From positions 99,438 to 163,437 of the forward strand of contig NMRA01000595.1 in assembly GCA_002633005.1 (NCBI GenBank): a DNA stretch of 64,000 nt. The letters run 5' to 3'. This stretch comes from Phoronis australis (lineage: Eukaryota > Animalia > Phoronida). Each line of letters opens with the position of its first letter. Within the stretch, counting starts at the first letter, position 1. Of this stretch, positions 40,001-64,000 are shown in pieces. Below the pieces are notes generated by a model. The model did not search any database. It was not told where the DNA came from and was given only the letters and a program-made list of their open reading frames with translations. A program made the translations under genes and the position numbers.

Positions 40001-40997
40001 TCACACTGTTATCTTAGCGCAACTTTTTTGACGCGGCTCAAAAATAAGATGCGGCCGCCAAAGAAGTGAAACTGCCCGAAAGCGGTCACGGTGAATAACA
40101 AGATGTTATGAATGGTGTTTCCAGCTCAATTTCATATTGTAGACATGATGAGGTTCAGTAGTCGAATTAAATACAGAACGTTTTGTTTTTATGTTGTACG
40201 TACAACATAGTCTTTCGAAGAGGACATGTATACATGTACATACCATGAGACGTAGTCAACCACGTCGAATGAGTAGGTCTAATTCAGCATAACGATCTAG
40301 GTTGTCACTTGATTCATACTTGTGATCGTTGTGAGCAACCGCAGTAGGTGTTTGAGGACGCTACTTGTATGGAATAGTTGGATCAAGTAATGCAAACGTG
40401 AACTTACTTTTTATCAGGCATGATTCCCAAAATGCTGATGACGTCACAAACTGAAAAGCCGTACGTCTCAGTGACGTACGTTTCTTCAGTGCCGTATTAC
40501 GTCGCCGTGCAAAATGCAACCCCACGGTTTTCGTAGGCACAGAGGCTCCTTACTGAGTCAAAGTCGTGTAGATCAAAACCGTGTCCCAAATCATAGCTAC
40601 CGGATATAGGGAGATCGATACAATGAGAACTGTTGAGACCGAGGAGTGCAGCGGGAATTGTTGACGCCGAAGGGAGCGGCTCTAGCGTGACGACTGAGGG
40701 GTACAAAGTATTTTGACGGGTGGTTGTGTGGCCACAGTGTGGGGAGGGGCAGGATTTGTGAGGGCAGCGACAGGGCAGGGCCCGGACTTTTGATAGCTGA
40801 GGGACCCCGAGAAACCGGTACAACAGCGTTTCCACAAACGTCCATCTAGCACTTGTCTGCTCGCTGGGACTAGCTGGGAAGCCAATGAACGTACGAAAGC
40901 CTAGAGCGGATTTAATACCCATCGTGTCACTCGATCGCTGGATAATTACATACCAATCAATGGTTTTTAGAAAAATAAAGAAGCCATATGGGCCCAT
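37007..40997 (-). CDS. STPG3: Sperm-tail PG-rich repeat (SHIPPO-repeat) protein, STPG3-like
   Basis: Exons 40997-40501 (5' part and start codon uncertain), 39599-39370, 39008-38923, 37354-37007 are phase-consistent. They encode GPSPCSY...ETKSPAFTI, WPGPATY...TLG, APSPCDY...TSPAFTM. The family is clear; the exact ortholog is less certain. Confidence 0.7.
37718..37873. mobile_element. 156-bp hAT-type MITE
   Basis: TIRs cagtgctgtagtgg / ccactacagcactg; 8-bp TSD cctgtgta / cctgcgta; internal gtaggcgc repeats. Confidence 0.8.
38466..38820. repeat. GC-rich minisatellite, 51-bp unit, ~7 copies
   Basis: gctgatctcaacgcacgcgccgacagtagggacctagcctacatgaaggtcca(t) in tandem. Confidence 0.95.
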
Positions 40998-41323
40998 CTG
41001 TCGTTGAATTTATTTGCTCATGTTTTTTTACCTAAACATCATTCAACAAAGAATGGACTCACCGGAGACAGCCCAAGAGTTGTTATCTCTGCAGCGAAGG
41101 ATGTTAAAGTTGAGTCTCCGATGAGTTGCCAGCAGTCACTGGTACGGCGCGCGGCTTTAGACGCTCTGCGGCTGGGTTAAAGATCTTTTATAGGCCTAAC
41201 TATCCCCAATTCCCGTACCAGGATGAATTTCAAAAAATAACTTGACTTGGCTGCATCAGATGTGATATGCAACGTTGATGTTGAAATTGCGCCATATTTT
41301 TTATGTTGATTTCCTTTGTTGGT

Positions 41324-41475
41324 TCATAATTCATATATTGCAATGTAGGCATCCAGGGGAGGCTTGGATGTACTTATGACTGTAGAGTCGTCAAAATTTA
41401 TCCATTCCCATGCTGACGATTTAACACAGCATGTGTAATGACCACCCGTCGTGTTTCTTCCATGGTGTTCAATGA
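41324..41475 (-). CDS. C-terminal fragment of a ubiquitin-specific protease (peptidase C19) catalytic domain; upstream part lies in the N gap
   Basis: IEHHGRNTTGGHYTCCVKSSAWEWINFDDSTV...AYIAIYEL* matches the USP His box (HxG...GHY...W..FDD) and the terminal AYxxxY motif. Confidence 0.8.
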
Positions 41476-42418: not shown

Positions 42419-44378
42419 TCGATTAGAATTCATGAAAAAGGGACGTGCAGTACTAAGCGATAAAAAGCAAAAGTAGAAATATAAAAGCTACGAACATAGG
42501 GTGTCTCAAATTAGACGGAACTCATTAACACTGGAACAAATGCCCACACACGAACCCGTGTTATTTAACCCGTGTTTTCAGTTATATACATTCTGTACAT
42601 AGATTTTGGTAACCGGTCAGGCAGTTCTTTTGCAAGTACCAATTGTTATTTTATGTGCAGTAGGCCTGCTTCAAAATAATGCACCAAATAATATTGTTAT
42701 ATAAAGCAAACTCTTTACTCTGGTTACCTCTTTTGAGAAAGCACAGTTTCCTAATTGCGAAGGCGGGGGACTTTGTTTCACAAGATCTCAAGGGCTGTCG
42801 ATTGACATCGTAGGAACATGGGGAAGGGCCGGTCGGTTCAATTTTATAATTAAAAAACTCGGATCACCCGGATTGTAGGGCCTGAAGTACGCCCTCCAGC
42901 GAGCGGGTAGGGCCCTGGGCTTCCACGAATTACTCTTTACGGACGCGTGGGATGATTTCCTGAAATGGGATTTTCATATCCTTGCGTGCATCCTACATGT
43001 ATCTAAAGCCCGGCTTGTCGGGAGATATTGTATCGCATCCCGCCGCGGAGAACACAACATATCTATACGCCCACTTGCATGTAGATGACAAATGAAATCT
43101 AAAATCTCGTATATTTTGAAACCATGACACCCAACGTCTGATTATAACCTGGACTGTGACTGCATTCCGAACACGAAGTAACGAACTCGTTATAATCGGA
43201 CCGTCACACACCCTCGGCCATAGCTCGTGGGAGAACAAAAATATTTCGTTTTAAGACAAATGATCCGATAACTTTAATATATGTCAAAAAGAGGATAATG
43301 TACCGATAAATTCCAAACTTTGAAGAGCCCGTTGCTGTTAGCAATCACACTGTTATCTTAGCGTAACTTTTTTGACGCGGCTCAAAAATAAGATGCGGCC
43401 GCCAAAGAAGTGAAACTGCCCCAAACCGGTCACGATGAATAACAAGATGTTATGAATGGTGTTTCCAGCTCAATTTCATATTGTAGACATGAGGTTCAGT
43501 AGTCGAATTAAATACAGAACGTTTTGTTTTTATGTTGTATGTACAACATAGTCTTTCGAAGAGGACTTGTATACATACCATGAGACGTAGTCAACCACGT
43601 CGAAAGCGTAGGTCTAATTCAGCATAACGATCTAGGTTGTCACTTGTCAGTACTGATTCATTCTTGTGATCGTTGTGAGTAACCGCTGTAGGTGTTTGAG
43701 GACGCTACTTGTATGGAATAGTTGGATCAAGTAATGCAAACGTGAACTTACTTTTTATCAGGCATGATTCCCAAAATGCTGATGACGTCACAAACTGAAA
43801 AGCCGTACGTCTCAGTGACGTAAGTTTCTTCAGTGCCGTATTACGTCGCCGTGCAAAATGCAACCCCACGGTTTTCGTAAGCACAAAGGCTCCTTAGTCA
43901 AAGTCGTGTAGATCGAAACCGTGTCCCAAATCATAGCTACCGGATATAGGGAGATCGATACAATGAGAACTGTTGAGACCGAGGAGTGCAGCGGGAATTG
44001 TTGTCACCGAAAGGAGCGGCTCTAGTGTGACGACTGAGGGGTACAAAGTATTTTGACGGGTGGTTGTGTGGCCACAGTGTGGGGAGGGGCAGGATTTGTG
44101 AGGGCAGCGACAGGGCAGGGCCCGGACTTTTGACAGCTGAGGGGCCCCTAGAAACCGGTACAACAGCGTTTCCACAAACGTCCATCTAGCACTTGTCTGC
44201 TCGCTGGGACTAGCTGCCGGGGAAGCCAATGAACGAATGAAAGCCTAGAGCGGATTTAATACCCATCGTGTCACTCGATCGCTGGATAATTACATACCAG
44301 CGACCAATCAATGGTTTTTAGAAAAATAAAGAAGCCATAGGGGCCCATCTGTCGTTGAATTTATTTTGCTCATGTTTT
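42419..44378 (-). pseudogene. Frameshifted duplicate of the 5' part of the STPG3-like gene (copy of ~39063-41026)
   Basis: Colinear and highly similar. The exon copy 42959-42728 is 232 nt versus 230 nt. There is a 4-nt deletion near 43895 that creates an early stop, plus further 4- and 7-nt indels. Confidence 0.7.
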
Positions 44379-44700: not shown

Positions 44701-45778
44701 TTATTCTAGGAATAAGTCTAATCTGGAACCAGTTTAATTTAACATCATTTGTAAAATTAACAACCACTACAAAAGCATAACGATGGCGTCTGTCGAGCCC
44801 CCCAAAGCCGCCAGGTCAGCCATATTTACTTCTTTGTAAGAGTGAGGGCAATGTGGGCATACGGAGGTTGTTTCATGAAAGTGACTAACGACTCAAGGCA
44901 GAAAGTTGACCTTACGCTACCACTTGACAATATTTCAGAATAGTTATGCGCGCATCTCAGTCTAGAAATTACTGATAGAAAGTATCTCGGTAACTAGCAC
45001 GGTGTATATTCTCAGACTTCCCACTTTTGGGCAAGTGAGATTTTCAGTTAATTCTCAGAAATAGTTGTTCCCAAAGAAGACCAAATTTCTGACTTAATTA
45101 AGTCAATTTTCACAAATCATGCCCCAGGGTGATGATACACTTCGCACAAAATCAAATGTCCTAGAGAATTTGGGAAAACTAGTATGTTAAACAAACAACA
45201 CGTTTTTATACCATGTCAAAGCCGACTGCATTATACTTAACTTTCTAGAACCCAGTCCAGTATATATTTGGATATTAAATGAAAACTACATTGCTGTGAA
45301 TGGCACTGCGAAATCATATTAACAAGATACTTCGACAATTTATTTATTTCTAAAAACAATGTACAAAATATAAAACTTAGTAAGAAAAGAACACCATGTG
45401 CAGTGACCAGTGCCCAGTTGAATGGAACAGTCCCAAATATGGAATCAGCAACATCAATGAACTTTTATGGCATTTGTGGAGACACCAATTGTCCTTTGTA
45501 TGCTGTTTTCTTCTCAGTCTACTTTTGGCTTTGATAAATACTAAGAGTGAACTCTATGTTGAATTCTCAATGTTATTGAAAATGAGTAGAGATCTTTTCA
45601 TGCAAACAGACCCTAATTTAAGGACCAAGTCCCTTCATATTTTCACTGTCTGACAGAAGGGCTCAGCTTTTAGGTTAATTATTAGAAAATGTCATTGAGT
45701 CAAAGAGGAACCCACAATAAAGACAAAATGATAGAAACACATAACATTTGTAAGTAAACATAGACACAAACACACAGA

Positions 45779-48700
45779 TTAAGTGATCTTAGCCGAGTCC
45801 CTATTTGGCACTGTTTCATACAACAGGGTGATGGAGTACAATCTGTGAAATGAAGCACTGACATACATATGATATGTTAAAACATAAATATGCAAACAAA
45901 ATAAATTACTAAGCAAATTAATTTTTATCCAGATTTCCCTAAAACTAAGAAAATTAATAAAATTTATTCATGTACTATTCAGCAGGAAATGTTTGATGAT
46001 TTGATGTAGCTGATAACCAAGGACATTTTATAGTGGAAAGGTTTTAAGAAAATAACACAAGTCCCTGCGAACAAGGAAACACTATGATGACTCATTCAAT
46101 TTCTTAGAAACAATCTTGCATCCGACAGTAAAACTACTAACTTTTTGGAGCTGTTTATAAATATAAAGGTTAGAAAATGAAAAATTGTAGCTGAAAAATT
46201 CCTTCAATCATAGTGTACTAACGCAATTAAGTTCAGAGCAATAAACATTTCTCTGAAATCGACTTAAAAATATTTTTAATAACGAATCAACATTGCTCAA
46301 AACTTTCAGATCAGAACCAAAACAGTTTTAAACTAATACAACCCTAAAACATAAATACAATCTCATGTGGCGTACCCCAGTCACAGGTCTCTGTTGATGT
46401 TTCAAACGATAAAGTATTTCAATGCAGAACAACTGACAGAAAAGTATGGTTAAAAAATAATCGCTTCCAACTTAATGCTAGACCATTACGAACATTGAGA
46501 AATTTGCAATTACTGAGTAACTAGCTGCAAATGCCAAACAACATGGCCGCCTTGGGATCCAAAAAACATTACAATAATAACATAACACTTAGCAATTCTT
46601 AGCACCACTTAAAGATCACTCAACTGACAACATTACAATAACTCTCCAATTTGGGAAACAGAAAATTTACTATTTGCTCAAGGTTGTAGTGTAGCTTGTG
46701 CAAATTTTAGAAATAGACAATACTGGCCGTTTCAGTTTCAAGAATGATAGTCTGCAACATACGACCATTCACCTTGATGTCAAAAATTAAGGGACGCATG
46801 AAAACCTTGTGTCGCCAGCTATCTTTTACAATTTTAAAAACTGTTATGACTATATTTAGACTCTATTCAAAACGCTACGATTAATATCAGAGAAATATGA
46901 CGAGCGCCAAAATCGCCCACGTTCCAATCAATAGAATCCAGAAAATTCATAATTGGCCTGAATTTTGTTATCGTAAATTTTAGAGACTGTTCCAAACTGG
47001 AGAATTATATCGAAAAACAAGAACAATTCTCAAGAAACAACATGAACACCAATTGTAAGATAATCACTTAGTACTAAAAACTTCGAGAAACAAGATGCAT
47101 CCAGGGGTGAACTTGCAACAGGTTGATAATCTTTCCAACAAATTTGTCAGTCAACTCCTGGTGGAGTCACTGAGGTCACGACCTGCTCAGGATACCTGTT
47201 AATAGATTCCTGTAGTCTTCTCATCTCAGCTAGGTGGAGCCGCTCTTGCTCAATTATGATATGCTCCCTGAGTTCCTGTGGGATACAACAGCATTAAATC
47301 GTGTACAAAAACAAAGTTTTCATCCGGCTAAAGAAATTTGTCTATCACAGCTCATCTCAATAAGATTATCACACTTACTTAAAAGTTCCACAGCAGTCAC
47401 AAAACAGTTTCAACAACATTTGAAAATTATTATTAAAATCTCTTGGTCTATTTACACCGACCTCTAGTCTATATACACTGTCACGACGTTTCGGTTGGTC
47501 TCTTCTTCGGCCATCGTCAGGTGTTCCCGCATTCTTAGAAGAACGAGCACGGATACATGGTACACTCATGGTGTGATTTTTGTGCTTCGACCGAAACATC
47601 GTGACANAAACAAGAACAATTCTCAAGAAACAACATGAACACCAATTGTAAGATAATCACTTAGTACTAAAAACTTCAAGAAACAAGATGCATCCAGGGG
47701 TGAACTTGCAACAGGTTGATAATCTTTTCAACGAATTTGTCAGTCAACTCCTGGTGGAGTCACTGAGGTCACGACCTGCTCAGGATACCTGTTAATAGAT
47801 TCCTGTAGTCTTTTCATCTCAGCTAGGTGGAGCCGCTCTTGCTCAATTATGATATGCTCCCTAAGTTCCTGTGGGATACAACAGCATTAAATCGTGTACA
47901 AAAACAAAGTTTTCATCCGGCTAAAGAAATTTGTCTATCACAGCTCATCTCAATAAGATTATCACAATTACTTAAAAGTTCCACAGCAGTCACAAAACAG
48001 TTTCAACAACATTTGAAAATTATTATTAAAATCTCTTGGTCTATTTACACCGACCTCTAGTCTATATACACTGTCACGACGTTTCGGTTGGTCTCTTCTT
48101 CGGCCATCGTCAGGTGTTCCCGCATTCTTAGAAGAACGAGCACGGATACATGGTACACTCATGGTGTGATTTTTGTGCTTCGACCGAAACATCGTGACAT
48201 TGTATATAGACTAGAGGTCTGTGTAAATAGATCAAGAGAGTTTAATAATAGTTGTAATACGCCACCACCTCAGAGCGGTTTTAGGAAGTCAACACTTGAA
48301 AAGTACAGTTATCAAGCATTCACCTTACTTTGGTCATTACCTGACCCAAGACCACACAATAAATTGCAAAAGATTGACAAATTTCACCAAAACTTATCTA
48401 GCTTAATCAAGCTTATATCAAATATTGTGAAACAAATAACGATTTAAATAATATGAGAATTAGCCTAAAATACTTTGAAAAAATTGCTGATCTTTGCACA
48501 AGATGCTTGCCATTTTTTAGGAAAAAATATTTTAAGGAAAGCTACACTGTAACAGTTACTGTATTTCTACCATCCTATTCGTTTTTAACTGTTGATTAAA
48601 ATTATAACTGAGAAGTGTCCATTAATATCAAACTGTATTTCCTTCGGCAGGGTATATACATTATGTACTAGACAACTGAAGCTTTATATCAACCTGAGTA

Positions 48701-51700
48701 GAGACTTGTCTTGTATTGGCCCCAAAGCGGCAGTAACAAGCGCCATCTGCAGCCGTGTACACTTTGTTGTAGTTCTCGCTAATCTTGACCTCTATGACGT
48801 AACGGTCTGGCACGTACTCCCGGGTCGTGGGGTCAGCGTGACCTCGCTTATATACGACGGGCGAGTAGGTGATATCATACATAGTGTGCATGACAGGGGG
48901 GATAAATCTGGTGATGGGAAAGATGTTTTAGTCAAACAACAATATTCCATTCAGTATCATCAGAAGTTGATGCTGTGAGATAGTCATTCTTCATTACAGC
49001 AGATGTAGTTTCAACTAGTCATAAAAAATAAAAAAATTGCTTAGTTAGTCAAATAAAGTTTAGTTGGCAGTCATGTCAGGAGCAAACACATATCAAAATC
49101 CCACTAAACTGTCGCTGATCAAAACTGTGAAAGAAGAAAGTTAATAATGTTGATTTTTGGTTGGAATTATTCTGTTTTAACCTGACTTATGTTAATGAGG
49201 TGGGTAATTAGGTCATTCAAGGTGACAAGTAAACACCACTCTCATTGGTTAATGTCTGGCAAACTCAGATGTTCAGTAACTTGTCCACCTCAGACAAAAC
49301 TCACTCTCTACAGCAGGATACAGTCCGGACCTACAGACAAGACCACCAAACTGGCTCTTCATTGGATGGTACAGTCACAACCAGCAGACCACACCCCAAA
49401 CCCACCTGTACAGAGCCCATGCCCAGACAAACCTCACTCTTTACAGCAGGCTACAATCCCGATCCACAGACCAGACCATGAAACTCACTCTTCACTGCAG
49501 GGTACAGCCAGGGCTTCATCCAGGATTTCAAACATAGGGTGTTCAAAATGGGTTCCCAATATTCCAGGGCGTCCATGATTCCAACGACGCATTACCCCCC
49601 CCCTCCCCACCACCATTCACCAGTAACCCCCCTAAACACACAGTGAGTTTTAATTTAAATTAAAAAATGCGTTGAACAAGGCTTTTACACCTAAGTTTAC
49701 AAAAACAGCTCCCTTGTATTGGGCTTTTTTAAGTACTAAAAAAATTGTTGATAAAGACTTTTATGTTTAAATTTACGAAAACAGCCAAAAAGCTTACCAA
49801 ACAGGTATTACAGATATTACAGATATTGGTTGAACAATGAGTGCACTGTTTTTGGTCATCTCAAGTCAAATTCTGTTATAAAGTTTATTATATCAACTTC
49901 ACTAGCTTTATATGCTGTACAATGAGTCATCAAAGCTGCAGTTACCAACAAAAGAAAAATGCACAGATGATGTGTGGTTTATATTTTGGCAACAGGTGTC
50001 ACTGCTGCTCCATTTTAGACGCACATACAAAAGCATGAAACGGGCGAAAACTTAAACATTTTAAATGGGGATATTCTTGCGGCACATCATATTATTAAAA
50101 TAATGACATTTATTTCGCTTTTGGTGTGTTCAAAAAAAGATGAAGTAGATGAAACTACAGCTCTGAAACACCAGTTTGGAGTTGAGCAAGGTCCGTGTCC
50201 CTATATAAAGTACAGAATTGCAGTGGCACATAAGTCTACTGAAAGCAGACACTCTGGCAACCAAACACCTGCTAATGATTGACAGATCTACCAAATACTT
50301 TGAAAATAGTTTGAACATTGCAACATTTGAAATACATTGTATATTTCTTTCTGAGTTGAAAGGGCCAACTTCTCTCTTTGATTAACTGAGAGTCTTAGTA
50401 ATCTTACAATTCGGGTGTCCAAACTGAAGAAATTCTGATTGACAGGGCGTCCAAATGATACATTGGGCGTCCTTGCCAGAGTGTCCACATTAGTGCTAGG
50501 ACGTACGCTGCATGAAGGCCTGGGTACTGCCCCAACCAGCAGACCACACCCCCAAACAAACCTGTACAGTGTCCATGCCCAGATGAAACTCACTCTCTAC
50601 AGCAGGGTACTTTACAGACTTGCAGACCACTCCACCAAACCCACCTGACAAACTCACTCTCTACAGCAGTGTACACTACCGACATGCAGACCACACCTCC
50701 AAACTCACCTGTACAGTGTCCATGTCCAGACAAAGCTCACTGTCTACAGCAGGATACAGTACCGACAAGCAGACCATACCACCAAACTCACCTGTTCAAC
50801 AACCTGTCCACCCCTAGACGGAACTCATCTCTAGTGTTCCTGTCCACCAAGATGCCCTGCACCACATTCTGCTCGTCCATGCCAAAGTAGATGCTTCCAC
50901 CTTTCCCTAATAAATGACACAAGGAGGTCATGTTTCATGACTATGTATGACAAGGCAAGGGAAAACAAAAATTGTTTAAAAGCATGATTGTATAATTAGG
51001 CCAAAAAAGCACATTTTTACTAATTGCTTATACAGATTTCCAAACACATTAATTTGGTGTTTCATTACCTTTTATAAAAAAATGAGAAAGTAAAATTTTT
51101 CTTGTCCCAAAAATTCTGCAGAAAATTGGTGTAGAAAATTTTTCATAGTATAAGGTAAAAATAAGATAATCTGTGCAAGTAATTAATTTTAATTCACAGC
51201 AAAGAGATCTGGATATACCAAAGAACTGCGCACAGTAAATTTTGCATTTTGCAAAAAACCTAGATCAAGTAAATCACGCAATTGAAAGGAGATTGTTTTG
51301 TGAGTATGCTCAGGACTTTCCTAGCGTATCCTAGCAAATGGCTGAAACTGAAGTGATTGGTTGGTGTGGTTGGGATGAGGAATTGTGGGATAAAATTGAC
51401 TGTTTCTGTTCCACAAGCGAGTCTTTCTAGCTGTAAGGCTTAGCAACTGTCTTGTATCAACAAAACACAGAACTTAGTAATTAATATGTTTCCTCAGGTA
51501 TACTCCAAAAACACAAATAATGGAAGGGCCACAGGTGCCAACAAAGGCACAGCAAATTAATATTTAAGCTGTGGTCGAACTCCTTACCACTGTTGAGGAA
51601 GCTGACTACAATTCTTGATAATGTACGGCTGGAGATATGAGTAGCGTCTTTTGTTGGTCGAAGCTCGTGAGAGGAGTCATTCTTCACTTTGACTGGAAGC

Positions 51701-54700
51701 CCTGGAACCAAAAGAGACGGTAAAAGTAGTAAATTAATAAAAGCATTGAAGTGACAAATCTGACTGAAGCTTGACACATGATGGACTTGGGGATCTGTTT
51801 AATGAAAAGTGACTTATGATTTAGGGCACAGCCCTTCCTGCATAATTAGATCTCATTTATTTAGAAAAAGTACCGTCACTGAGAGTATACTAAAACTGCT
51901 ATAATTTTATAAATTATTTTTAAGCTGTAATGCGCTAATAATTACATGTCCAAACTTTTATTCAGAATCTGCCACGTGTGAAATGTAAGACCAAAATTCT
52001 GCCACAAAAATTTAAGCCATTTTTCACAAAACAGACACCTCAGAGAAGCAAAATTTAAAATTAGTCGATCGATCAATGAAGGTTTGCTATAAATGGGAAC
52101 ACAATGGCCCTGTTCACGGACGCATTGCGGAAATTAAGTTACACCGAACGGAACAATAGGCCTCTTCAATTGTAGGGAAATATGTAAAAAGTCTACAAGA
52201 ACACATCAAAATTCATGACAATCTTTTGACAAACAATTACCAGGTGGCGCTGCACTTACAAGGTAACAATGAACTTAAGTAACTAGCCTAACACGCTAAT
52301 TCAAGATTTTTTTACAGGCCTGACTTTTCTTACTGAACAGCTGTCTTTTTCAAGCTATTGCTAACCATTGGTTTAAAAGGGAACATGGAAATTCAAGCTG
52401 GAGAAAACTATTGAATAAAGGGAACTTAATAGCTCAGAAACCATTGTACACACAGCTGAGCAATACAAACATGCAAATATGGTAAAAATTCTGCAAGATC
52501 ACATTAAAATACACTGCAATCTTTCAACAAAGAATTAGAAGGTGGCGCTGCATTTACGAGGTGACATGCCACAAATATTGACCAAGCTTGGTCAAGAACA
52601 GGATGTTGTACATCGACAGCATGTCTGTGATAGTTGACGTCATGGTAACAAACAGCTAGGTTAAGAACAATTAGGGTAAACCAACACCGAGATCCAATCT
52701 TGGTTAGTACCTTGTATAAAGAAGACAGTCTCTGTTTTCTCTTTATAATGTCTGGCTGCATCCACCAACACAGTGTTGTTTACACTCTTTCCTGCAGTTG
52801 TAAAATGACATGAAATAGTTTTAAAACACATCAAAGACAAATTGACAATACCTTCTAAATAACACTACACACCAAATATTTGGCTAAAAATGTACACTAA
52901 GTCTTGTAAATGAGGTCCTATGTAACATTATGTGACAATCTGGTATAAAACTGAACTCGTTAAGTCCTCCTCCAATGATAAAAGCCAACGATAAAATATG
53001 CTTTGGTGAGGGTCATTAGCGTACAAAGTTCTGCATTTTTGTAACTACTAAAGCATTAGGAAAATTTCCAGCATTTTTCGTCTGAATTCTGTGCAAACAC
53101 CGGCCCATCAACCTCTAGAATATTGTTTGGTGGCATACTCGAGCAATTGAAACAAAACTCTAAATTTGAAAATGAAAGACATTTCGTTTGTGTAAATCTA
53201 CATCAACTCAGCCCATATTGGGAGGGTATAAACCAGACTATGCCAACAGCTGGCCTTTGGAGATTGTGGCGATTGTTTTCTTCAGCATCGCGACTACGCC
53301 ACGAGTATTAATTTGTGAATCGATTAGGACGGATTAGTCACAGTCTGACTTAGGCGTTGAGCTAACACAACTCCAAATGTTAGTGTAGGAGTTGTCTCAC
53401 GACTGACTGAAAGGATATGACTGATTGTGAGGTCTTGCTTTTCTCGCAAGAAGCTAGGTCTTAAGTACACTGTCCAGTAAGAGCCCCAACAGCCATACCT
53501 TTTCTCTTGATGATGGTTTCACCTTCTGAGTCTCCTGATAAATATTGTCCCCGAGACAAAATGGTGTCCTCGTCCGAACTACTGTCACTCTGTAAAACAT
53601 GGCAATGTAGTGGGCCAAAGACAGTGATGTCACATGACCTGCCCTCAAGCCTGTTGTGAACTAATCATAGGGAGGAAGTGATAGCTCTGACAAATTTACA
53701 TTGTCTGCCACAGCATTTGAATATGACACTTGCAAGGGCACTTATCTAGTGCAAGTACTGTGTATTCGACGCCCACATTAAGACATCTTTCATTCCAACT
53801 AATAAAGAACTTATCAAAGGCTTTTCCAGAATCAATGAAGTGCTTTGAGTGGACGAGATAATGTTTGTGAGACACAGGAGCTTGCTGCCTAGGATCGATT
53901 TCATCAAAGTCACTTAGGACTCCAAACAGAAATTTGGTCTCACGCTCCCACAGCCAGGCTCAACAAGTTGACTTGGACAAGGTCTCAAGATATAACAAAG
54001 TGCTTGTTGGCTTGGACAAGGTCTCAAGATATAACAAAGTGCTTGTTAGCTTGGACAAGGTCTCAAGATATAACAAAGTGCTTGTTGGCTTGGACAAGGT
54101 CTCAAGATATAACAAAGTGCTTGTTGGCTTGGACAAGGTCTCAAGATATAACAAAGTGCTTGTTGGCTTGGACAAGGTCTCAAGATATAACAAAGTGCTT
54201 GTTGGCTTGGACAAGGTCTCAAGATATAACAAAGTGCTTGTTGGCTTGGACAAGGTCTCAAGATATAACAAAGTGCTTGTTGGCTTGGACAAGGTCTCAA
54301 GATATAACAAAGTGCTTGTTGGCTTGGACAAGGTCTCAAGATATAACAAAGTGCTTGTTATTCCCAATAACAGAAATCCTTTCAAATCTGAGTAAGAAAC
54401 ATGTAAATACCAATTTTACAAAAAATCAGTGGCTTAAATAGCAAGCAATTTTTTTCCACAGGCCGGATTATAGGATATCCAATATTCACCAATTACCGAA
54501 TTTGCCGAAATAACTGCTCATGCCCCTATAAGCGCCCCCCACACGTTTTCAGACTTTGCTAAAATAAACGCCCAGTCCATGAACGTGTACATGCAAAAAA
54601 TGCCTTACCTACAGTCCTAAAATTCTACAGTAACGTCTTCAATTTATCAATAATATCTGACAGTCCTGAAAAAAATCATTGTGCGCAAAATTGTAGACCA

Positions 54701-57700
54701 CGAGCCTCGCTGCTATGTCGGTATTTAGTCATGACTATACACTTCAAACTTCCGCCATGCCTCAAAACGAACACAAAAGTTCTGCTGATCTTGCGAGGAC
54801 TAATGGCCTGGCCTTTCAGAGCAGAAGTAGTGTACTTGTCTATGGGATTGCTTTGTAGATATTTCCCGCTTTCAACAGGAATCCAAATTTCTTTGTACAA
54901 GTGAAAACCGCCAATTGAAGACTAATAAAAAGCTTGACCAGTGTTAAAAGCACGTGGCCAGGAAGCTACATAGTACATGAACCTGTCATCAAAGACATTA
55001 GTCGGGAACTATCCATTCATGAAATGGGTAGCATAGCATCGACAAGAAATTAATATTGGCACTCATTTCTGACAGTTTCTAATACTAACTATAAAAATGT
55101 TTGCGTTATTTTTAAGATGAATTGTTTGATTAACCATAATTGGTGTTTTTAAGCCAAATATCCGATAAAATGACCACTGACAGTGAATGCTTACGCACCC
55201 TTACACCGAAAAATAACTGTCAGATAGTCAGTAGTCCCGTACGCATCCAGCCACACAGCGACTAATATGGGCCTTAACGAGACAAATGTCGAACGTTTTT
55301 AGCACGAGACCAGCAAGTGCTGAACGAAACACGCTCTGGTTTAGGCCTACTGCTTGTGCAATTTCTTTAGATGCAATGCACATCTAGCTCGTTAGATAGC
55401 GTGGCTCTGGCCAAAAGACGGTCTTTGCTCTGGCAAATGAGCTCTGGTGACACGCAAGCGCTGGCTTACTCACAAACGCAGACGAACTTCAAAACAAACG
55501 TCACGTGACAACAGCATGTGTATTCGTCCAGACATTTTTCTCATGTTGCCGATTATACATGTAGATGGCACGATGTAGCACAGATTTGTACTTAAGCCTG
55601 CTGTGATCCCGACTCCACGGGAACTTAAAAATCTTAAGGACGCTACTTGGAAAACTTAAGGAGGATTTCAGGTAATTTGATTGAGACGAAACTGTATTTT
55701 TATTCAAGCATTCAAGTCGCAATTGCGAGGCAGCACAATTTTCTGTAAAAAGATCGTAATTTAGCAGCAAAGTTTGACAGCAATGCACCACGGTTTTGTA
55801 GAAAGTCTTTCATAGATTACAGATAACTCACACAGCATAAATATGATGAATCTTAGCTTCCAATTTCACCCGTTTCGGAGACCAGGTTTCAACGGCCTTG
55901 GGTTATAATAAGCACCCCCCCTGAAACAAACTTTTCTAAGCACCCTGGGTGGTTATTACAGCGAATACAGTAATCAACTGCATTATAAATTTGGTCCTAT
56001 GATTGGACCATTCGGCCATCTGCACTTCACCAAAAACAATAACTATAAGTTACAATTAAAGAGAAATTCTACGATGAACAACCAACCTGAGTTTGCCTGC
56101 TACGTGAAACAGACCTCTGACCTCCGACCCTAGGTGCACTCGCTGACCTCCCCCGTCTGGAAGGAGGACTTGTGTCCGGATCACTGACGTATTGGCGTGC
56201 ACTACGTCGTCTGCCACGTCGATGTCTGCTTGCCACATCGGGTCTCATGGAACTACTTTCAACTTTCGTGGCTGCCAAGGGTTTGGAACCAGCAGACTGG
56301 GGCACAGGACTACGAAAGGAAAAAAGCTCATACTGACCTTTGATAGTTTACAGGGCAGCCACTATTCCTCCCTCGCACACCACAAGGACATTCTCATCAA
56401 CAGTGTTCTGTTGTCACGAACACAATTCTGACAATATCAGCTGTAGTATGCGTCGTGCTCACGCATCTCTTTTCTTATAATCCACCATTTTTTGTGGATA
56501 ACTACTTGAAAGAAAAACATTACATTGCTGATGAAAACCACGCAATCACCCTAGTTGCTGAAAGTAACCAATTAAATTGACAAGCTATTGACATCATTCC
56601 CAGACACAGGATTAGGAAAATCTAGGGATTCACACTTGCTGACATGCCAACTAATGTCCAGCAGGTAGACTGAGACAATGGCATTAAGCAGAGCAAGTTT
56701 CTCTCAAATTTGTCGAGAACACTAGCACCTAAAATGGCAGCCACTTACAGATTGGTAGGTGAGAATGCAATGCTGAATTGCAGGATAGAATTCGTAGACA
56801 GTAAAAAAGTGCTATTGTATCATTATACCACGCCCCCCCCTCAAACAGAAGACACACCTGGCCTTCGTACATATTTATACTACGCCCAATGCGGTTAGTC
56901 TCCATTCACCTGAGGTGTGAACATACGTGATTGGCCCAAATTTTCACATTTGACGGCTGATGGGACGCCTTACGAACATGTTTTAAGTGCCTGGTCTCCC
57001 CTCTTATCAGACATTCAATCTAGCTTCTCATAAAAGCAAGGGATAATATTTCATAGGTAAAAATTACCAATCCCCATTAGTATTCTATCAATTATTTTTA
57101 ACAACCAAACAAACTAAAACAGTTGCAAACTAATATAAACATTCAACTCACTCAATGATCTTACCATACCTATTTACATCGTCTCCCTTGAGCAGCATGT
57201 CAACAGACAATTTCATTTGACCGACAAAGATTCTCAGTGTCTTTATGGCTGCAGGGCGGATGAAGTTAGTGTCTTTTCTGGCCACCAGGTGCAACAGAAG
57301 TTCCAAACCTAAAATTGAATAATGATGAAAATAGAATCCGTCAAAGACTGGTAAATTACAATAGATACGGACTGATGACCAGTAAATTACAATAGACATG
57401 GATTGATGCCTGGTAAATTACAATAGATATGGACTGATGACCGGTAAATTACAATAGATACGGACTGATGTCAGTGCAAGAACACATTAATTATTGATAT
57501 GCACTTGGGTTCTTCATTCAGTCGTCCAGTTATTATTTACAGTCATATTATGCTACAATTTTCTACGTTTCCAGGATATAATTTCAATTTTCACAACCTG
57601 ACTTTCCTAGTGCAAAACATGGAGACTCCAACTATTGTTGCCAAGTACAATTAAATGCAAGAGCCTGTAACATGAACCATAACTTGAAATAACTTGAAAT

Positions 57701-60700
57701 TTTCTGGATCAGTTTTACTCTAAGACTTGCATTTTCCACCCATTCCATGTATGGAGGCTATCTTTGTAATTTGCGGGTCATCTTTGTAATTTGTGGGTCA
57801 TCTTTGTAATTTGTGGGTCATCTTTGTAATTTGTGGGTCATCTTTGTAATTTGTGGGTCATCTTTGTAATTTGTGGGTCATCTTTGTAATTTGCGGGTCA
57901 TCTTTGGTTTGCAGGATGAGTGTCTAAACATGTACTGTTGGGGAATGTTTTTGACAGGCAAGATAGCATTGGATAATGTTGTCCGTCCCAAACAGCTACA
58001 TTGCATAAAACATCAATCAAACATAGACTTGTGGTTTGCTCAGCAATTCTCACTACGACATTGCATCATGACTGTAGACTGTGTGGTCCTCACAGAGTAT
58101 TTATTGTATGTTAACACTACTCCCCCTAAAGTCTGCTGAATAGATTAATAGCAGACCAGCCACAACTACACAGATAATTCTTTAAAGATGTATCTGCATG
58201 GTCATATAATGTATAGCAGGAACTAAACAACAATGCTATTTGAACACCATCTACGCTCAACAAAGTGCAGTTGAAATCAGTTACAACTTGACAATGTGAA
58301 TTAACCAGAAAAATCTTCATATAGGTGACCTTCAAACTAATGATAAACCTTGGGGATTCACATTACCCACACCATGCAATGTTATTCCCCAATACCAGGT
58401 CACCATACTTGCAGGAAACGGTTAAGGGATTTACGGCGGAAAATTTCTGACATAAAACTCATTCTTCAATACATTTGGCAATTTTCAACCAACATAATAT
58501 TCACATCATCGCTATAGGTTGCATTTGTAATGCTTTTGTCTAAGCAGTCACAGAGATAAGAAATTTGCATGCAAATTCCACTTTAAATTTGTCATAAAAA
58601 TAATTCATTTCAACAAAAAAAGGAAACTCTACAACAAGTCAACAAACAGGTATCTGGTATGAAATGAAATTGTCCACATTTTAATTTTGGAGTTTTATGT
58701 TGACTGAATGAAAAATAATCATAATATGTGAAACTCATACTGTACCCCTGAGGTCAGCAAACAACTGTTTGTTGTCTGCGCAGTTGAACATAAGATTGGT
58801 GAGGGCGTTCAGACCCACTTTGACCACTCGTGACATGGCAGTGGTCAGCGACAGCACACACTTCTGACAACAAGCTGTAGAGAGAAGGCAGTCTTCAATA
58901 AGCTATATACCATGTAATGGAAAAACTCACCAATGCAATCCAGTTTCACAAAAACATTGACAAAAAGATAAAAATCCATTATGCAGTGAAAGTGTACCCA
59001 GAATACACAGCTTTACGATTTTTAGTTTAGTGGCAGAACAAAAACACAGTCTGTACCTTACGTGTGACACTTTGTTTATTGGACTGCACAATAAATGTGC
59101 AAAATCTTACACTTTTGAAAGCAGGTGACTGGAAAGTTTCCTTTTTTGAAAACTCATGAATCATAAGCAGAAATGTGTATGATATGGTACAATCTCATCA
59201 ATTTTGGACAAAAAAAACAAAAAACAATTAACCTCAATTCCAAAGTCTTCTAAAATTGCTGTGAAAGTCCACAATTTTCAAAATATTGTCAGATAGAGAG
59301 TATAGTACAGACCCTCAACATGTAAAAGTATTACGTCATTGCTGTGCATCTTTCATGAATAAAACAAAAAATAGAATACGAGTCCGCTACATTTGATTCT
59401 AAATTGGTAAGGTTATAGATATTTTTCTGCATTGAAAGTATTCATAATTCAGTTTAATTTAATAAAGTTGTTTAAGTCATGAAACCAGGACATATAGAGA
59501 CATGCTGTTGGGGACACTGAGTACACACTTTCGGGAGACAAGAAGTTTTTTATCGCTGGTAAAATTTTAGCCTCTTTATCGTTTTTTTCCTAGTTAACGT
59601 CGTTCATCAGACAAAAAATATGTTATTGTAGCATGCATACAAACTTTTGCAGAAATACAACAGAATTATTATGCAAGCAAATACAACAGAATTATTATGC
59701 AAGCAAATACAACAGAATTATTATGCAAGGAAATACAACAGAATTATTATGCAAGCAAATACAACAGAATTATTATGCAAACAAATACAACAGAATTATT
59801 ATGCAAACAAATACAATAGAATTATTATGCAAGCAAATACAACAAGATTATTATGCAAACAAATACAACAGAATTATTATGCAAGCACAAAACATTGTGA
59901 AAAGGTGTTGAAAGTGAGTAGTACTATAATTATGATTGTACACAGTAGGGCTAAACCAATAACTTAACTTACAACACGGTTCTAGAGATTTTACAAAAAC
60001 TAATCTTGCATTCCCATCATAATGAAAACTCCGGTCTACCAACGATCCACGCAACTCCACCTCCCTTTCCATTCACTGGTGACATCAGAGTTACCATTAG
60101 TTCTCTGGATTTAACACCAGATGGCGCATTTCAATCATAGAGGAAGATTAACGGAATTGAGATTAATGAACATGTCCTGCCATTTATGATGAGTAAAGCC
60201 AGACTGATCAGTGTTCTTTGTTGTCAGTTTTCTGTTCTCTTAATCCTTTATGAGCGGGAATGACATTAGTGATTGATATCGCGACCTCTGACCAAAGTGG
60301 TGTTAACATTTCCCACTTAAATTCACATATTTTGAGTGGAGCTGCGTTCGCTATTTAAGGTCGAGAGTTACGCTTCCCATAAAGCTAAACTCGGTAAAAC
60401 AGGTGAGTACCGGTGCTGGTGGGAAAGTGGCACTAAGTACACAGGCCATATTTAGATAAAGGACTAAACTCACTGAAATAAACAATTTGTCTTACTTAAA
60501 ATTTTCTTGACACCCCCTATTTGACCGAGATTCAACCGTATCCTAGGCGATCGTGCAGCATTGGCAATGATGGATATAGCTAACTCTGCCACCTTTGGAG
60601 AAGATGGGTTAACAAGACTGAAGAAGACCGCAGCTGTTTCCTTAGAGTACATGACTCCCTCTGAAACCAAATCAGCCACATTACTGCAAGCATAAATAAT

Positions 60701-63700
60701 GCTTAGGCACACAGGGGGCGCTGTAACTGTACTCAGTTGGGTTTATACACAGATTAAATTCAGAAACTTAAATAAATAAACAGCAGGCAGGTATGGGTAA
60801 TGTACTATGCAAATGACAGATTTGAGGAAATGCACTTATAAGCAAGCATGTACTTAAAATGCAAGAGTTTAAGTGAAAGCAAATATAAGATATAATATAC
60901 CTATACCAATATTACAAAATCATCAAGAAGGTCCTTAAAAGGGTGTAAAAAGTGCGTGTCATTACAACTCAAGTACATACACAAAAAACAATGTAGATGG
61001 AACAAACTTAGAAAAACAAAAATGAACAACTTTGTACTCTTCGTCAGCTTTGGAAGGAAAGACTGACACAGCGCAACTGTTGGAATACGGATGTTTTTTT
61101 CAAGATTGCATGGTCTCCTAATCTTTTTCTTAATTAGAGTTAAAACAACAGCATGTTTGTGTTGTTAGATTGAACATTAATACATGCTAATTATAGTTTT
61201 GTAATACTTGACAGAAAAACAGCATTTTAAAATTGTACAATGATAGTGTATATATTGTATACTGAAGACTAGCTTCCTTAAACCACCTTCAGGTGGTGAT
61301 GGAGTAACATTGTATCTTTTCTAAAATCTCTTGGTCCAATTCAGACTAACTTCTAGCCTATTTACATTCTGTTGGCATTATGTTTTAGTTCATCATTCAT
61401 CCAGCCACTTTCATGGGTAAAAGAATTTTAGAAGTACAAGCGCGGGTTTTTAATAATCTTGTGGGGTCAATGATGATCACTTTCAGTGAATAAGGAACTT
61501 TGTCGGTCAAGCATTTTCGTCACTAGACCACTGAATCATCCGGTAGTTGTCAGTTGAGCACTCTCATCACTAGACCACTGAGTCATCAGGTAGTTGTCAG
61601 TTGAGCACTCTCATCACTAGACCACTGAATCATCAGGTAATTTAGGAATTTAATAAGTTTATCTTGTAATGTAAGACTGAAGACTTGTTCACATCATTCA
61701 TCGAACACAGAGACATACCAGCAGCAGTGACGTCCTGGCACACGGTACAGATGGTCTTCAAGATGGCCACCAACATGTCTTCACTGACCGGCGGTGGAAT
61801 GGCATCTGAAGCAATGAGAAATGTCATGTTATAATATCAATATCAATATCAATATCATCTATTGTACATCGTGGGCATTGCCTACGAATACATAAATTCA
61901 AAAGAACATGTTCTAAGTATTTACACAGAGCAGTTCCTGTCTTTAAGCCATAGCCCTCTGAATATACAATGCAAGGCTCTGGATACTGTCATGATTCTTA
62001 TGTTGGAATAACCTAACAAGAGAAGAGTTAACATTCATAAGCTTTGGTGGATTTTTCTAAGGTCTCCAAGAACAGGACATCGACACATGAAATGAGGCTC
62101 ATCTTCCATTTCATCACGATTGCTCGATTGCTTATGCCGCATTTTCTCTCACTTCCAGGAATACCCATATGTCTACCTTTCTCTGCATTAAGTGAGTGAC
62201 CTGAACATCAAACTGTGAAATCATTCTTCTCGAATAAGCAATTAAACAATTCACATATTGCTTGCTAACTACATGTCATTTAAGAAGACTATTAAATTCA
62301 TATTGATCTGAACTACCTCTTTCCAGTTGCCATTCTTGTACTCCACAATCTAGTGAACCTCTCCTTGAAAGCCATAATAAATTCAACAAACACTACCTGG
62401 GCCAAATAACCACACCTTTCCATATTACCTGAGCCAAATAACCACACCTTTCCATATTACCTGGGCCAAATAACCACACCTTTCCATAACCGTACCAACA
62501 CAAAATTTCTTTGACAGGGTGTGCCCAGTTACAATTACCGTTTTCACCCTGTTCCCTAAGCATACTATAGCACTTCAGTGGGAACCTAATTATGTTCTTC
62601 CATATCATGTAATATTGTCCAAAAGATAATTGGTTTACACATTATATTTTGTAATTAACAATCGTCACATTCACCAGCAGCCACCACATACTCAATCTGA
62701 GAAAAATATTTTTACAAGAATCACTATTAACTTCTTTGATTCACATATTGACGTGCCCAATATTTTTACACCATATCTTAGTATGGGCATTATCACGGAG
62801 CCAAAAAGTTTAAAGTGCACTGTATGGGAAGTACAGTTCATTGCCTTTCGAGCTTGGCAAGCAAGTATTCTACAACACTCTGTTCTTTTAAGTCTGCAGA
62901 ATGTGACTCCTAGGTACTCGTAGTCGTACCATTTGGTACATGTATCTATTTCCTTGTGGCAAAAAAAAACACCTTTCAGTATTTGAAAGTATGCCCCCTC
63001 GCTTAAATACTACAACATTTGTTTTCTACCAATTAATTTGCAAGTTCCAATCTCAACAAAACTTTTCGAGGACAATGAGCTTCACCTGTAGCCCAGCAAC
63101 AGTATTCAAAACCAGAAGTGGACATCAAATAAAAATGTAACCTTGGGTTAAGGAGATTTACCTGGTTTTCATTTTAAAAGAAAATATAAAAGCATATTAC
63201 TGAAGAACAAAAATGGACTAAAAGATTTCAGGAGCATCAATCAAATGGGGGTTGTCAGTGATGGATGTGAATATATTGGTTACACAATTTCATAGGGTAT
63301 ATATTTAAGCACATATTAATAAAGCATAAAAATATTTCCAGGTGATCAGTGCAATGGGTCCACATGTGAGGCCTGCGCATGTCTGGTACAACGTGTATCA
63401 GACCGCCTGCAATTATTTTATATTTTATATTGTTCGGAGGGAAACTTTTAAAAAAAGAGTGACGTCACAAAATGCATTGTTACCTTTAACAGAACAGAAA
63501 GTGACTTGAGGGACGATACTCTTCAGTTTTTCAGGTAGCTCATATATATCCTGAGCAGAAACTTGAAATTTCCGCCCATAGTCAACGGCCAAAACAGTGA
63601 AAGTGTGGTCTCCTCCACCAACTACCATGCAACGAACAAACTCTGATTGGCCACTGAGAGTGACGCTGCAGCAGACGAGCTGTCCAGTCACTGGACTGGA

Positions 63701-64000
63701 AGAAAGTTTTCTCCGTTCATTTTCAGAAGTCAACTCTGATCGGACAAATTCGACTTGCTGAAACATTTTCTCCCCAATGTGGGCGAAAAAGTTTAAATTT
63801 GGTAAAACGTGCACCACTTCTACACTGTCCCACACAGAGGAGGATATGTCACTGTCAACAGTCCATATTGAGCCAGCTTCGACTAGTTCATCTCTCACAG
63901 TCACATCTGTTTCAGGGTTTGTTGTGTCAAACAGTTCCACCTGGTAGCACGTGATGACACTGCAGTACTTAACTGCCAGGGACCCGTTCAAATGTAACTC
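45779..64000 (-). CDS. Tudor + ARM-like repeat + Schlafen/AlbA_2 domain protein (5' end outside window)
   Basis: Phase-consistent exons: >64000-63484 (extended Tudor: GQLVCC...EFVRCMV...VLAVDYG...IYELPEKLKSIVPQ), 61805-61719, 60720-60496, 58874-58746, 57308-57170 (ARM-like: LGQIGGVKKIL, ALTNLMFNCADNKQLFADLRGLELLLHL), 56309-56087 (R/S-rich), 53589-53499, 52791-52711, 51701-51588, 50906-50792, 48907-48694 (AlbA_2: HELRP...IVVSFLNSGKGGSIYFGMDEQNVVQGI...RDEFRLGVD...FIPPV...YVIEVKI...VY...CYCRFGANT), 47868-47789, and a tentative last exon 45842-45779. Confidence 0.82.
47015..48199. repeat. ~590-bp near-identical direct duplication (47015-47606 vs 47608-48199) joined by a single N; probable assembly artefact
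   Basis: The copies differ by a few substitutions and meet exactly at the N at 47607; they duplicate exon 47868-47789. Confidence 0.85.
48018..48253. mobile_element. Fold-back (~70-bp inverted arms) with a hammerhead-like core; probable Penelope-like element relic
   Basis: ctcttggtctatttacaccgacctctagtctatatacactgtcacgacgtttcggt is mirrored by accgaaacatcgtgacattgtatatagactagaggtctgtgtaaatagatcaagag. Confidence 0.7.
48075..48116 (-). ncRNA. Degenerate minimal type I hammerhead ribozyme-like motif
   Basis: Minus strand CAC-CTGACGA-TGGCCG...CAACC-GAAA-CG-TC-GTG: core boxes, GUC cleavage triplet and 3-bp stem I; stem II is partly mismatched. Confidence 0.55.
49290..50800. repeat. Degenerate ~80-bp tandem repeat (49290-49508 and 50523-50800) split by a MITE
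   Basis: Recurrent cagacaaactcactctctacagcagg...cagaccacacc..aaac.cacctgtacag units. Confidence 0.75.
49509..50522. mobile_element. ~1-kb non-autonomous hAT-type DNA transposon
   Basis: TIRs cagggcttcatccag / ctgcatgaaggcctg; 8-bp TSD ggtacagc / ggtactgc; subterminal gggtgtcc/gggcgtcc repeats. Confidence 0.8.
53970..54358. repeat. Minisatellite, 39-bp unit x10
   Basis: cttggacaaggtctcaagatataacaaagtgcttgttgg in near-perfect tandem. Confidence 0.97.
54496..55970. mobile_element. TA-flanked non-autonomous Tc1/mariner/pogo-like DNA transposon carrying a HIRAN-like relic
   Basis: Ends TA|ccgaatttgccgaaataac and gttattacagcgaatacag|TA form an imperfect TIR; subterminal ataagc.cccccc repeats; the minus strand at 54676-54910 reads GFHLYKEIWIP...NPIDKY...PRKISR...LRHGGSLKC...GL. 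Confidence 0.65.
57348..57470. repeat. Minisatellite, 31-bp unit, ~4 copies
   Basis: gtaaattacaatagatacggactgatgacca-type units. Confidence 0.9.
57760..57906. repeat. Minisatellite, 20-bp unit (atctttgtaatttgtgggtc), ~7 copies
   Basis: Direct tandem copies. Confidence 0.95.
59652..59886. repeat. Minisatellite, 26-bp unit (aaatacaacagaattattatgcaagc) x9
   Basis: Direct tandem copies. Confidence 0.95.
61520..61640. repeat. 47-bp tandem repeat, ~2.5 copies
   Basis: tcactagaccactgaatcatcaggtagttgtcagttgagcactctca. Confidence 0.85.
61832..63140 (-). mobile_element. Decayed non-LTR retrotransposon 3' portion (RTE-X/L2-like RT C-terminus)
   Basis: Minus-strand pieces DYEYLGVTF (YKYLG-type RT motif), KLFGSVIMPILRYG, NWAHPVKEILCWYGYGKVW and EDEPHFMCRCP; (GATATT)n microsatellite tail near 61832-61856; internal 33-bp tandem at 62392-62487. 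Confidence 0.75.

Follow-up and report, generated by a model that had tools for sequence, protein, structure and literature searches.

The window analysed here is a stretch of 64,000 nucleotides from Phoronis australis (contig NMRA01000595.1, positions 99,438 to 163,437 of the forward strand). Its minus strand contained, within 45779..64000, one spliced gene of 12 exons (E1–E12) with GT-AG introns, whose product combined armadillo (ARM) repeats, an extended Tudor domain and a Schlafen (AlbA_2) fold. This armadillo-Tudor-Schlafen gene is real, spliced and transcribed. The function that we favour, held tentatively and at a little under even confidence, is that the proteins of this family act as a non-cutting adaptor subunit for a separate, active Schlafen nuclease, with small-RNA (piRNA-type) processing as the most plausible setting. 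The one known meeting of a Schlafen fold with an extended Tudor domain is in piRNA biogenesis of Caenorhabditis elegans, and an adaptor in small-RNA processing was therefore preferred.

In the proposed mechanism, the degenerate Schlafen fold would bind RNA through conserved arginines and would pair with another, active single-fold Schlafen nuclease. Such pairing was suggested because known Schlafen nucleases are multimeric and one active site is enough, as in SLFN11 dimers (PMC9482658). The clusters of short Schlafen-only proteins, mostly molluscan, are candidate partners. The Tudor domain would bind proteins without methylarginine, via its staphylococcal nuclease-like (SN-like) surface as TOFU-6 does, and the ARM groove with its conserved asparagines would bind an extended peptide. 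The pathway served would be small-RNA biogenesis.

Schlafen fold and its active-site residues

Exon 10 (50792..50906) encoded the Schlafen box with a conserved Arg-Asp-x-Phe-Arg helix, and exon 11 (48694..48907) the C-terminal half of the fold. They matched Pfam SLFN_AlbA_2 (PF04326) at 0.04 and 0.005, respectively, on separate parts of the profile, and as single exons both stayed below the cut-off of 25.3 bits (the two scores, the higher first, were 17.7 and 14.9 bits). All eight long orthologues exceeded this cut-off, and the spliced Schlafen domain of the window scored 244 bits on the family profile, which placed it in the Schlafen fold. The family profile also matched PDB chains of the nuclease lobes of SLFN11, SAMD9, SLFN5 and SLFN12 (7fex, 1.2e-5; 7ksp, 4.7e-4), and language-model features of the domain led to Schlafen clusters. 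Conservation was highest in the Schlafen fold (mean modal frequency 0.54, against 0.32–0.51 elsewhere in the protein), which is therefore under selection for something. Arg674, 677, 681, 750 and 764 were present in eight or nine of the nine lineages.

Cutting by SLFN11 requires E209, E214 and K216, not D252, and members without one of these residues are nuclease-deficient; the E209A and K216A mutants are inactive (PMC9482658). Bacterial Schlafens share the motif Ex4(E/D)xK (PMC13056530). With the register set by alignment through the outgroup protein P0031, the corresponding residues of the window lay in exon 9 (51588..51701), which carried a degenerate active-site motif with Asn485 (51681–51679), Asp486, His489, Glu490 (51666–51664) and Arg492 (51660–51658). 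Asn485 replaced the first metal-binding Glu and Arg492 the essential Lys, and the chain contained one Schlafen fold; both findings argued against the single-chain nuclease proposed in the original prediction. The motif Ex4(E/D)xK was found in none of the 24 family Schlafen domains and in three of the four outgroup domains. The family rows comprised E/D/R (7), N/E/R (5, including the window), D/E/C, Q/E/R, D/E/R and K/D/R (2 each), and N/E/W, Q/E/Q, N/D/R and E/D/gap (1 each). These residues suit a fold that, at least in the lineage of the window, has been retained to bind RNA and to pair and not to catalyse.

Several points weigh against the adaptor reading. Ex4D was retained in eight of the 24 family rows, those of amphioxus, Pocillopora, Stylophora and their kin, and the bacterial Schlafen RorSlfn5, which has Ex4DxK, is active (PMC13056530); thus, part of the family may cut RNA. 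An Asp at position -4 (23/24), a His at -1 (22/24) and an acid at 0 (24/24) were retained as well and could form a variant site, and the coral and amphioxus copies differed from the active motif just by the change of Lys to Arg. The register was bridged from P0031 to SLFN5 and PDB 5yd0 at E values of 0.025–0.09, by sequence alignment with no residue-level superposition. A sequence link to TOFU-1, TOFU-2 and TOFU-6 was sought and not found, and the likeness to these proteins is a functional analogy. The animals that bear the family probably have Zucchini. By contrast, the C. elegans complex PUCH substitutes for an absent Zucchini (PMC10567574).

These residues also allow another reading, in which the family cuts RNA at a variant site made of the near-invariant Asp at -4, the His at -1, an acid at 0 and Arg in place of Lys. 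The Tudor and ARM parts would steer this ribonuclease, which would probably work as a homo- or heteromultimer. This lies close to the single-chain nuclease first proposed, and we consider it rather unlikely. The seven E/D/R sequences, from amphioxus and corals, speak for it together with the activity of RorSlfn5, the dispensability of D252 in SLFN11 (PMC9482658) and the strong conservation of the domain; the window itself keeps Glu490 and has Glu527 (exon 10) at the place of the third acid. However, the first acid varied widely (among E, D, N, Q and K), the Lys occurred in 0 of 24 sequences with Cys, Trp or Gln instead in four, and the third Asp was missing in all 24. The loss of activity in SLFN11 E209A and K216A points the same way, and the residue that we equate with the third acid appears to be essential in Avs9 (PMC12680541).

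A complex predictor, run with no alignment on a pair of Schlafen domains from the scallop orthologue P0011, each with its helix, gave a score of 0.04 (mark 0.32), which spoke neither for nor against pairing. Three eukaryote-like Schlafen proteins met in the searches (P0030, P0032 and P0033) had an intact Glu-Glu-Lys motif and two of them an RRM; the Atlas contains an RRM-Schlafen cluster.

Tudor insert and armadillo scaffold

Exon 1 (63484..64000), whose 5' end is open, encoded the end of the apparently permuted SN-like segment (residues 1–47) and, from residue 56, the N-terminal part and core of the extended Tudor domain. Pfam TUDOR (PF00567) matched this exon at 1.6e-9, with 38.3 bits against a cut-off of 23. 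The alignment to Tudor-SN (2WAC) revealed a degenerate aromatic cage.

The Tudor domain had originally been thought to target the protein to methylated arginines of PIWI proteins, and the cage residues did not bear this out. Compared with Drosophila Tudor-SN, the cage of the window read L/V/A/Y, non-aromatic at three cage positions, with Arg for the Asn. A family set of 21 sequences, several of them near-copies, had one of the four aromatics in 17 sequences and two in the other four, counting the first cage position, which is the least certain column. The Asn was present in none of them, and the third position was Ala or Ser in all 21. In comparison, a control multi-Tudor protein had a complete cage in five of its seven domains. 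Given the established mechanism of the cage, its breakage makes binding of symmetric dimethylarginine by the family Tudor unlikely. An aromatic residue stood at the position of the cage Asn in 17 of the 21 sequences, and the pocket may have been remodelled around it.

An AlphaFold2 model of P0011, made from 32 aligned sequences, had a mean predicted local distance difference test (pLDDT) score of 75.4 and was low (pLDDT <50) solely in the linker. Its Tudor insert covered about residues 122–342 (~220 residues) and contained the strands and helices of both the barrel and the SN-like subdomain, which defines an extended Tudor. Foldseek matched the insert to SND1, TDRD1, TDRD2 and Papi (E 4e-5 to 3e-4, root-mean-square deviation (rmsd) ~3 Å, 116–129 columns), and sequential alignments to these proteins spanned only 116–148 of ~200 columns. 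The SN-like helix and strands appear to precede the Tudor barrel in the family, whereas in the canonical topology they come after it. When these two blocks were exchanged in the profile, a seven-Tudor control protein scored 211.3 bits; the Tudor alone gave 188.7 bits, the native-order profiles 182.7 and 194.6 bits and 40 column shuffles at most 199.7 bits. The higher score of the swapped profile over native orders and shuffles supports a circular permutation. The SN-like block alone was weak (6.2 bits, best decoy 5.0), and its three matches all lay just after Tudor domains. Based on this one control protein and the predicted model, the extended Tudor appears to be circularly permuted and to lie inside the ARM array. 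A single-sequence fold of exon 1 was unusable (pLDDT 36.6). A second, upstream Tudor ending before the main one was also considered and was ruled out, as the orthologues carry one Tudor.

Helices on both sides of the insert (residues 7–114 and 346–495 of the P0011 model) formed one ARM solenoid. Residues 6–497 aligned with designed ARM proteins at Z 27.4 and rmsd 2.1 Å over 247 residues with the Tudor skipped, and ~240 residues superposed unbroken on designed and natural ARM proteins (Z 24–27). The whole-model structure searches were dominated by ARM and Tudor chains and barely probed the Schlafen part. The family profile matched beta-catenin (7.5e-14) and importin-alpha (2.7e-14). Three-helix repeats, a solenoid and an Asn in helix 3 were all present, which identified the array as armadillo, and Asn357 and Asn400 were invariant in nine of nine lineages. 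The prediction is thus a single solenoid, made of about six ARM repeats, that carries the extended Tudor in one of its loops.

Within the window, the Tudor insert ended and the ARM array restarted in exon 2 (61719..61805), from which the family profile matched ARM proteins. Exon 3 (60496..60660) encoded an ARM repeat that matched Pfam ARM_ARMC5 at 3.2e-5, under the cut-off as a single exon. A further repeat in exon 4 (58746..58874) and the final one in exon 5 (57170..57308) were assigned by orthologue alignment. The three or so ARM repeats noted at the outset are therefore seen in the window, but they are just the C-terminal half of about six. The position of the Tudor within the ARM array, with its apparent permutation, was missed there. 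The Tudor, ARM and AlbA_2 domain calls themselves stood, by the above-cut-off Tudor match, the ARM profile matches and the eight orthologues.

The solenoid was followed by an Arg/Ser-rich low-complexity linker in exon 6 (56087..56309), assigned by composition and by pLDDT in the orthologue model, and by an acidic Ser-rich linker in exon 7 (53499..53589). Exon 8 (52711..52791) held the end of the linker and, by alignment, the start of the Schlafen fold. The linker of the window protein had 17 Arg and 23 Ser in 105 residues. It was predicted to be disordered, and a long terminal helix was predicted after the single Schlafen fold. These features could also belong to a general scaffold of RNA granules, splicing or transport, in which the ARM groove binds a basic peptide, possibly the protein's own Arg/Ser linker, and the Schlafen fold only binds RNA or oligomerises, with no nuclease partner. 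The resemblance of the solenoid to importin-alpha and beta-catenin with its conserved asparagines would suit such a role, as would the wealth of Arg and Ser in the linker of the window protein and of several orthologues. However, the linker was the least conserved part and was not Arg/Ser-rich in several molluscs, and none of the tests made pointed to splicing or transport; we therefore regard the scaffold as distinctly improbable.

Gene structure, family and neighbouring features

Exons 1 to 12 spliced into a single open frame of 667 codons with one terminal stop. About 18–19% of each of three stranded RNA runs with the same species label (X1–X3) was read, and all 11 junctions were present, each with 4 to 14 reads in its best run. 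The counts in X1/X2/X3 were 8/5/0 (E1–2), 7/4/2 (E2–3), 4/0/6 (E3–4), 0/4/4 (E4–5), 5/1/0 (E5–6), 10/2/2 (E6–7), 0/4/4 (E7–8), 4/0/0 (E8–9), 14/4/7 (E9–10), 5/0/2 (E10–11) and 8/0/7 (E11–12). The junction reads were exclusively first mate on the plus strand, which corresponds to a minus-strand transcript, and none came from the opposite strand. The junctions E5–E6, E6–E7, E7–E8 and E8–E9 joined the Tudor/ARM half to the Schlafen half and so upheld the claim that the Tudor and AlbA_2 exons belong to one gene. This linkage is a chain of short-read junctions backed by orthologues of the same order, and no single read covered both domains. The RNA differed from the window at four exonic sites, two of them silent and the others changing Ser to Thr and Met to Ile, and the motif residues were unaffected.

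The gene is truncated at the window edge, with its 5' end outside. Judging by the orthologues, the window protein is short of ~150–200 N-terminal residues, including the first half of the ARM array. At the other end, exon 12 (47740..47868) encoded a conserved C-terminal helix (760–791 in the orthologue model), and reads reached 47868. It ends either at a read-through stop at 47740 or at an internal donor at 47789 leading to a probable exon 13 with a stop codon (45779..45842, minus strand). Exon 13 lay outside the area of RNA-read coverage. It was phase-compatible with the donor, restored a Leu usual in the family and added 2 bits against the family profile, and an AATAAA followed downstream at 45348. 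From its letters, exon 13 likely belongs to the gene; the last 15–20 C-terminal residues are thus a prediction that differs between the two endings. The original start coordinate of 45779 agrees with the stop of this probable exon and lies beyond E1–E12.

The region of exon 12 was duplicated. The second copy (47015..47606) lay 593 bases from the first, with a single N at 47607 between them and six mismatches in ~590 bases. Loose ends of RNA at the E11 donor carried the letter of the second copy at one site. The duplicate is probably two alleles joined at a contig overlap in the assembly.

A full, profile-free protein search with exon 11 returned 12 proteins, of which 11 were family members; the other, P0008, was a WD40 protein and was dropped as a false match. 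The named matches came from a chiton, three bivalves, Lingula, Saccoglossus, Branchiostoma and the anemone Exaiptasia. A search with a profile of the Schlafen domain returned 19 proteins, 14 from the family and five unrelated Schlafen proteins used as outgroup, and added Stylophora, Pocillopora, Acropora and more bivalves. Twelve of these 14 had precomputed Tudor and AlbA_2 domains. All were named 'uncharacterized', 'hypothetical' or by automatic domain names, without a described function. The order ARM, Tudor, ARM, linker, single Schlafen fold and helix was shared by corals, molluscs, Saccoglossus and amphioxus, and the orthologues of Lingula and one anemone were partial. The spliced window protein was collinear with the orthologues at E values of 1e-39 to 1e-75, with 25–31% identity over 450–740 columns in seven of the eight compared; the chiton match fell in two pieces. 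The expected conservation outside nematodes thus held in corals, molluscs, a brachiopod, an acorn worm and amphioxus. Since cnidarians, lophotrochozoans and deuterostomes share the architecture, the sequences imply that the family arose before the cnidarian-bilaterian split.

Vertebrate, arthropod and nematode members were not among the named matches, in searches of a sensitivity too low to show loss. The base of the Schlafen-domain tree had no resolved order, and the tree neither placed the animal of the window nor showed E/D/R to be ancestral. Word-indexed protein searches missed the family (exon 1 gave one match, a generic multi-Tudor protein, and exon 11 none). The sequences of exon 10, exon 11 and P0035 found only chance matches in the PDB, and exon 10 found a single one among plasmids. 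The Stylophora protein P0018, named adenylate cyclase type 6, fuses tubulin, the armadillo-Tudor-Schlafen gene and a cyclase. It is probably a mis-joined annotation and, as an apparent chimeric gene model, was excluded from the alignment A2.

The distribution of the family also bears on a further alternative, that the protein is a somatic factor of innate immunity or stress like SLFN5, SLFN11 and SAMD9. Its ARM and Tudor parts would sense viral or damaged ribonucleoprotein and its Schlafen fold would bind or help to cut tRNA or rRNA, with no link to piRNA. The best structural-sequence matches of the domain were SLFN11, SAMD9, SLFN5 and SLFN12, transcripts occurred in three bulk RNA runs, and fusions of a sensor with a Schlafen are the rule in bacterial defence (PMC13056530). 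However, the family kept one fixed architecture from corals to amphioxus, mostly with one sequence per species among the matches, in contrast to the expanding clusters of immune Schlafens (10.1101/2024.01.12.575368). The PDB matches of the Tudor insert were SND1, TDRD1, TDRD2 and Papi. Extended Tudor domains are mostly linked to piRNA and RNA-granule proteins, and an immune role appears quite unlikely to us.

A bolder extension of the adaptor reading would make the family the ancestral one-chain counterpart of the link between TOFU-1 and TOFU-6. It would represent a Schlafen arm of piRNA precursor processing that dates from the cnidarian-bilaterian ancestor and persists in marine invertebrates beside Zucchini, still catalytic in corals and amphioxus (E/D/R) and decayed to a pseudo-nuclease in the lineage of the window and in molluscs, and it would hold the first circularly permuted extended Tudor. 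We think this unlikely.

The literature searched, which left subscription papers and most supplements outside its scope, described neither this family nor a permuted extended Tudor, in agreement with the statement that no characterised protein with this architecture is known. Six orthologue locus tags did not occur in the main texts searched, and five supplementary files of one scallop gonad study contained no family match. The word 'tudor' was absent from the main texts of the Schlafen evolution preprint, the SAMD9 evolution paper and the bacterial Schlafen paper. The domains are known and their co-occurrence is listed automatically in databases; what is new is the architecture built from known parts.

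Downstream of the gene, the minus strand at 37007–39637 held exons with sperm-tail PG-rich (SHIPPO) repeats (Pfam E ~0.01, below the cut-off), which probably belong to an ODF3-like ciliary gene. At 3436–26564 (minus) lay a long gene of many exons, with coiled-coil and acidic ones among them. None of its nine exon frames tried had a Pfam match, and we take it to resemble axonemal dynein light chain domain protein 1. The same exon frame occurred at 24900–25217 and 26232–26564, on either side of the gap 25218–25423, likely as a second assembly overlap. A His-box fragment of a ubiquitin C-terminal hydrolase (UCH) lay at 41327–41473 (minus; Pfam UCH 9.4e-8, above the cut-off) beside a 943-base gap. 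Two similar frames flanked it (40497–41009 and 43894–44244), which suggests a mobile element. Deep, diverged RNA coverage on both strands marked dispersed repeats in introns at 48050–48300, 49500–50500, 54500–55750, 58200–58300 and 63300–63420. Eight tandem arrays were found in 45000–64000, the longest with 39 bases repeated 10 times (53967–54359).

Comparison with known systems

A role of Schlafen proteins in small-RNA biology beyond nematodes was raised as a question in the Discussion of the PUCH paper (PMC10567574) and in a preprint (10.1101/2024.01.12.575368). The family described here is a concrete, old and testable candidate: from corals to amphioxus, its members unite a Schlafen fold and an extended Tudor in a single chain. 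Its naturally near-intact (E/D/R) and broken (N/E/R) sites enable a direct comparison. Whatever its function, the putative permuted extended Tudor within an ARM solenoid is an architecture not met in the literature searched.

In C. elegans, TOFU-1 has no catalytic residues and joins the active TOFU-2 and SLFL-3/4 in PUCH, and it binds the SN-like surface of the cage-degenerate extended Tudor of TOFU-6, a PETISCO subunit (PMC10567574). The family resembles this system in having a single Schlafen fold per chain and in coupling an empty Schlafen fold to a cage-degenerate extended Tudor. In the worm, however, the coupling is made between two proteins, the active site sits on a third and the membrane helix belongs to a fourth, whereas the family has one chain. 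The family also differs by its ARM solenoid, its apparently permuted Tudor and the lack of detected similarity to TOFU proteins, and its piRNA role is putative.

The vertebrate SLFNL1 is testis-enriched and has a single C-terminal Schlafen fold (PMC10567574). The family likewise has one C-terminal AlbA_2 fold, and one scallop orthologue was automatically named 'Schlafen-like protein 1'. Unlike the family, SLFNL1 keeps its catalytic residues, and no Tudor or ARM part is described for it in the available text (10.1101/2024.01.12.575368). The nuclease lobe is homologous to those of SLFN11/12/13/14, SLFN5 and SAMD9/9L. In these proteins, however, each chain has two lobes or carries STAND NTPase parts, and the Glu-Glu-Lys site is intact in all but SLFN5; the family is without helicase or NTPase and its site is degenerate.

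The Tudor barrel and SN-like strands are shared with SND1/Tudor-SN, TDRD1 and TDRD2/Papi. In the family the cage is lost, the SN-like part appears to be placed before the barrel and the whole unit is inserted in an ARM repeat. Finally, ~240 residues of the predicted model superpose on importin-alpha, beta-catenin and p120 (Z 24–27). Unlike these ARM proteins, the family has just about six repeats, interrupted by a Tudor insert of 220 residues and joined in one chain to a Schlafen fold.

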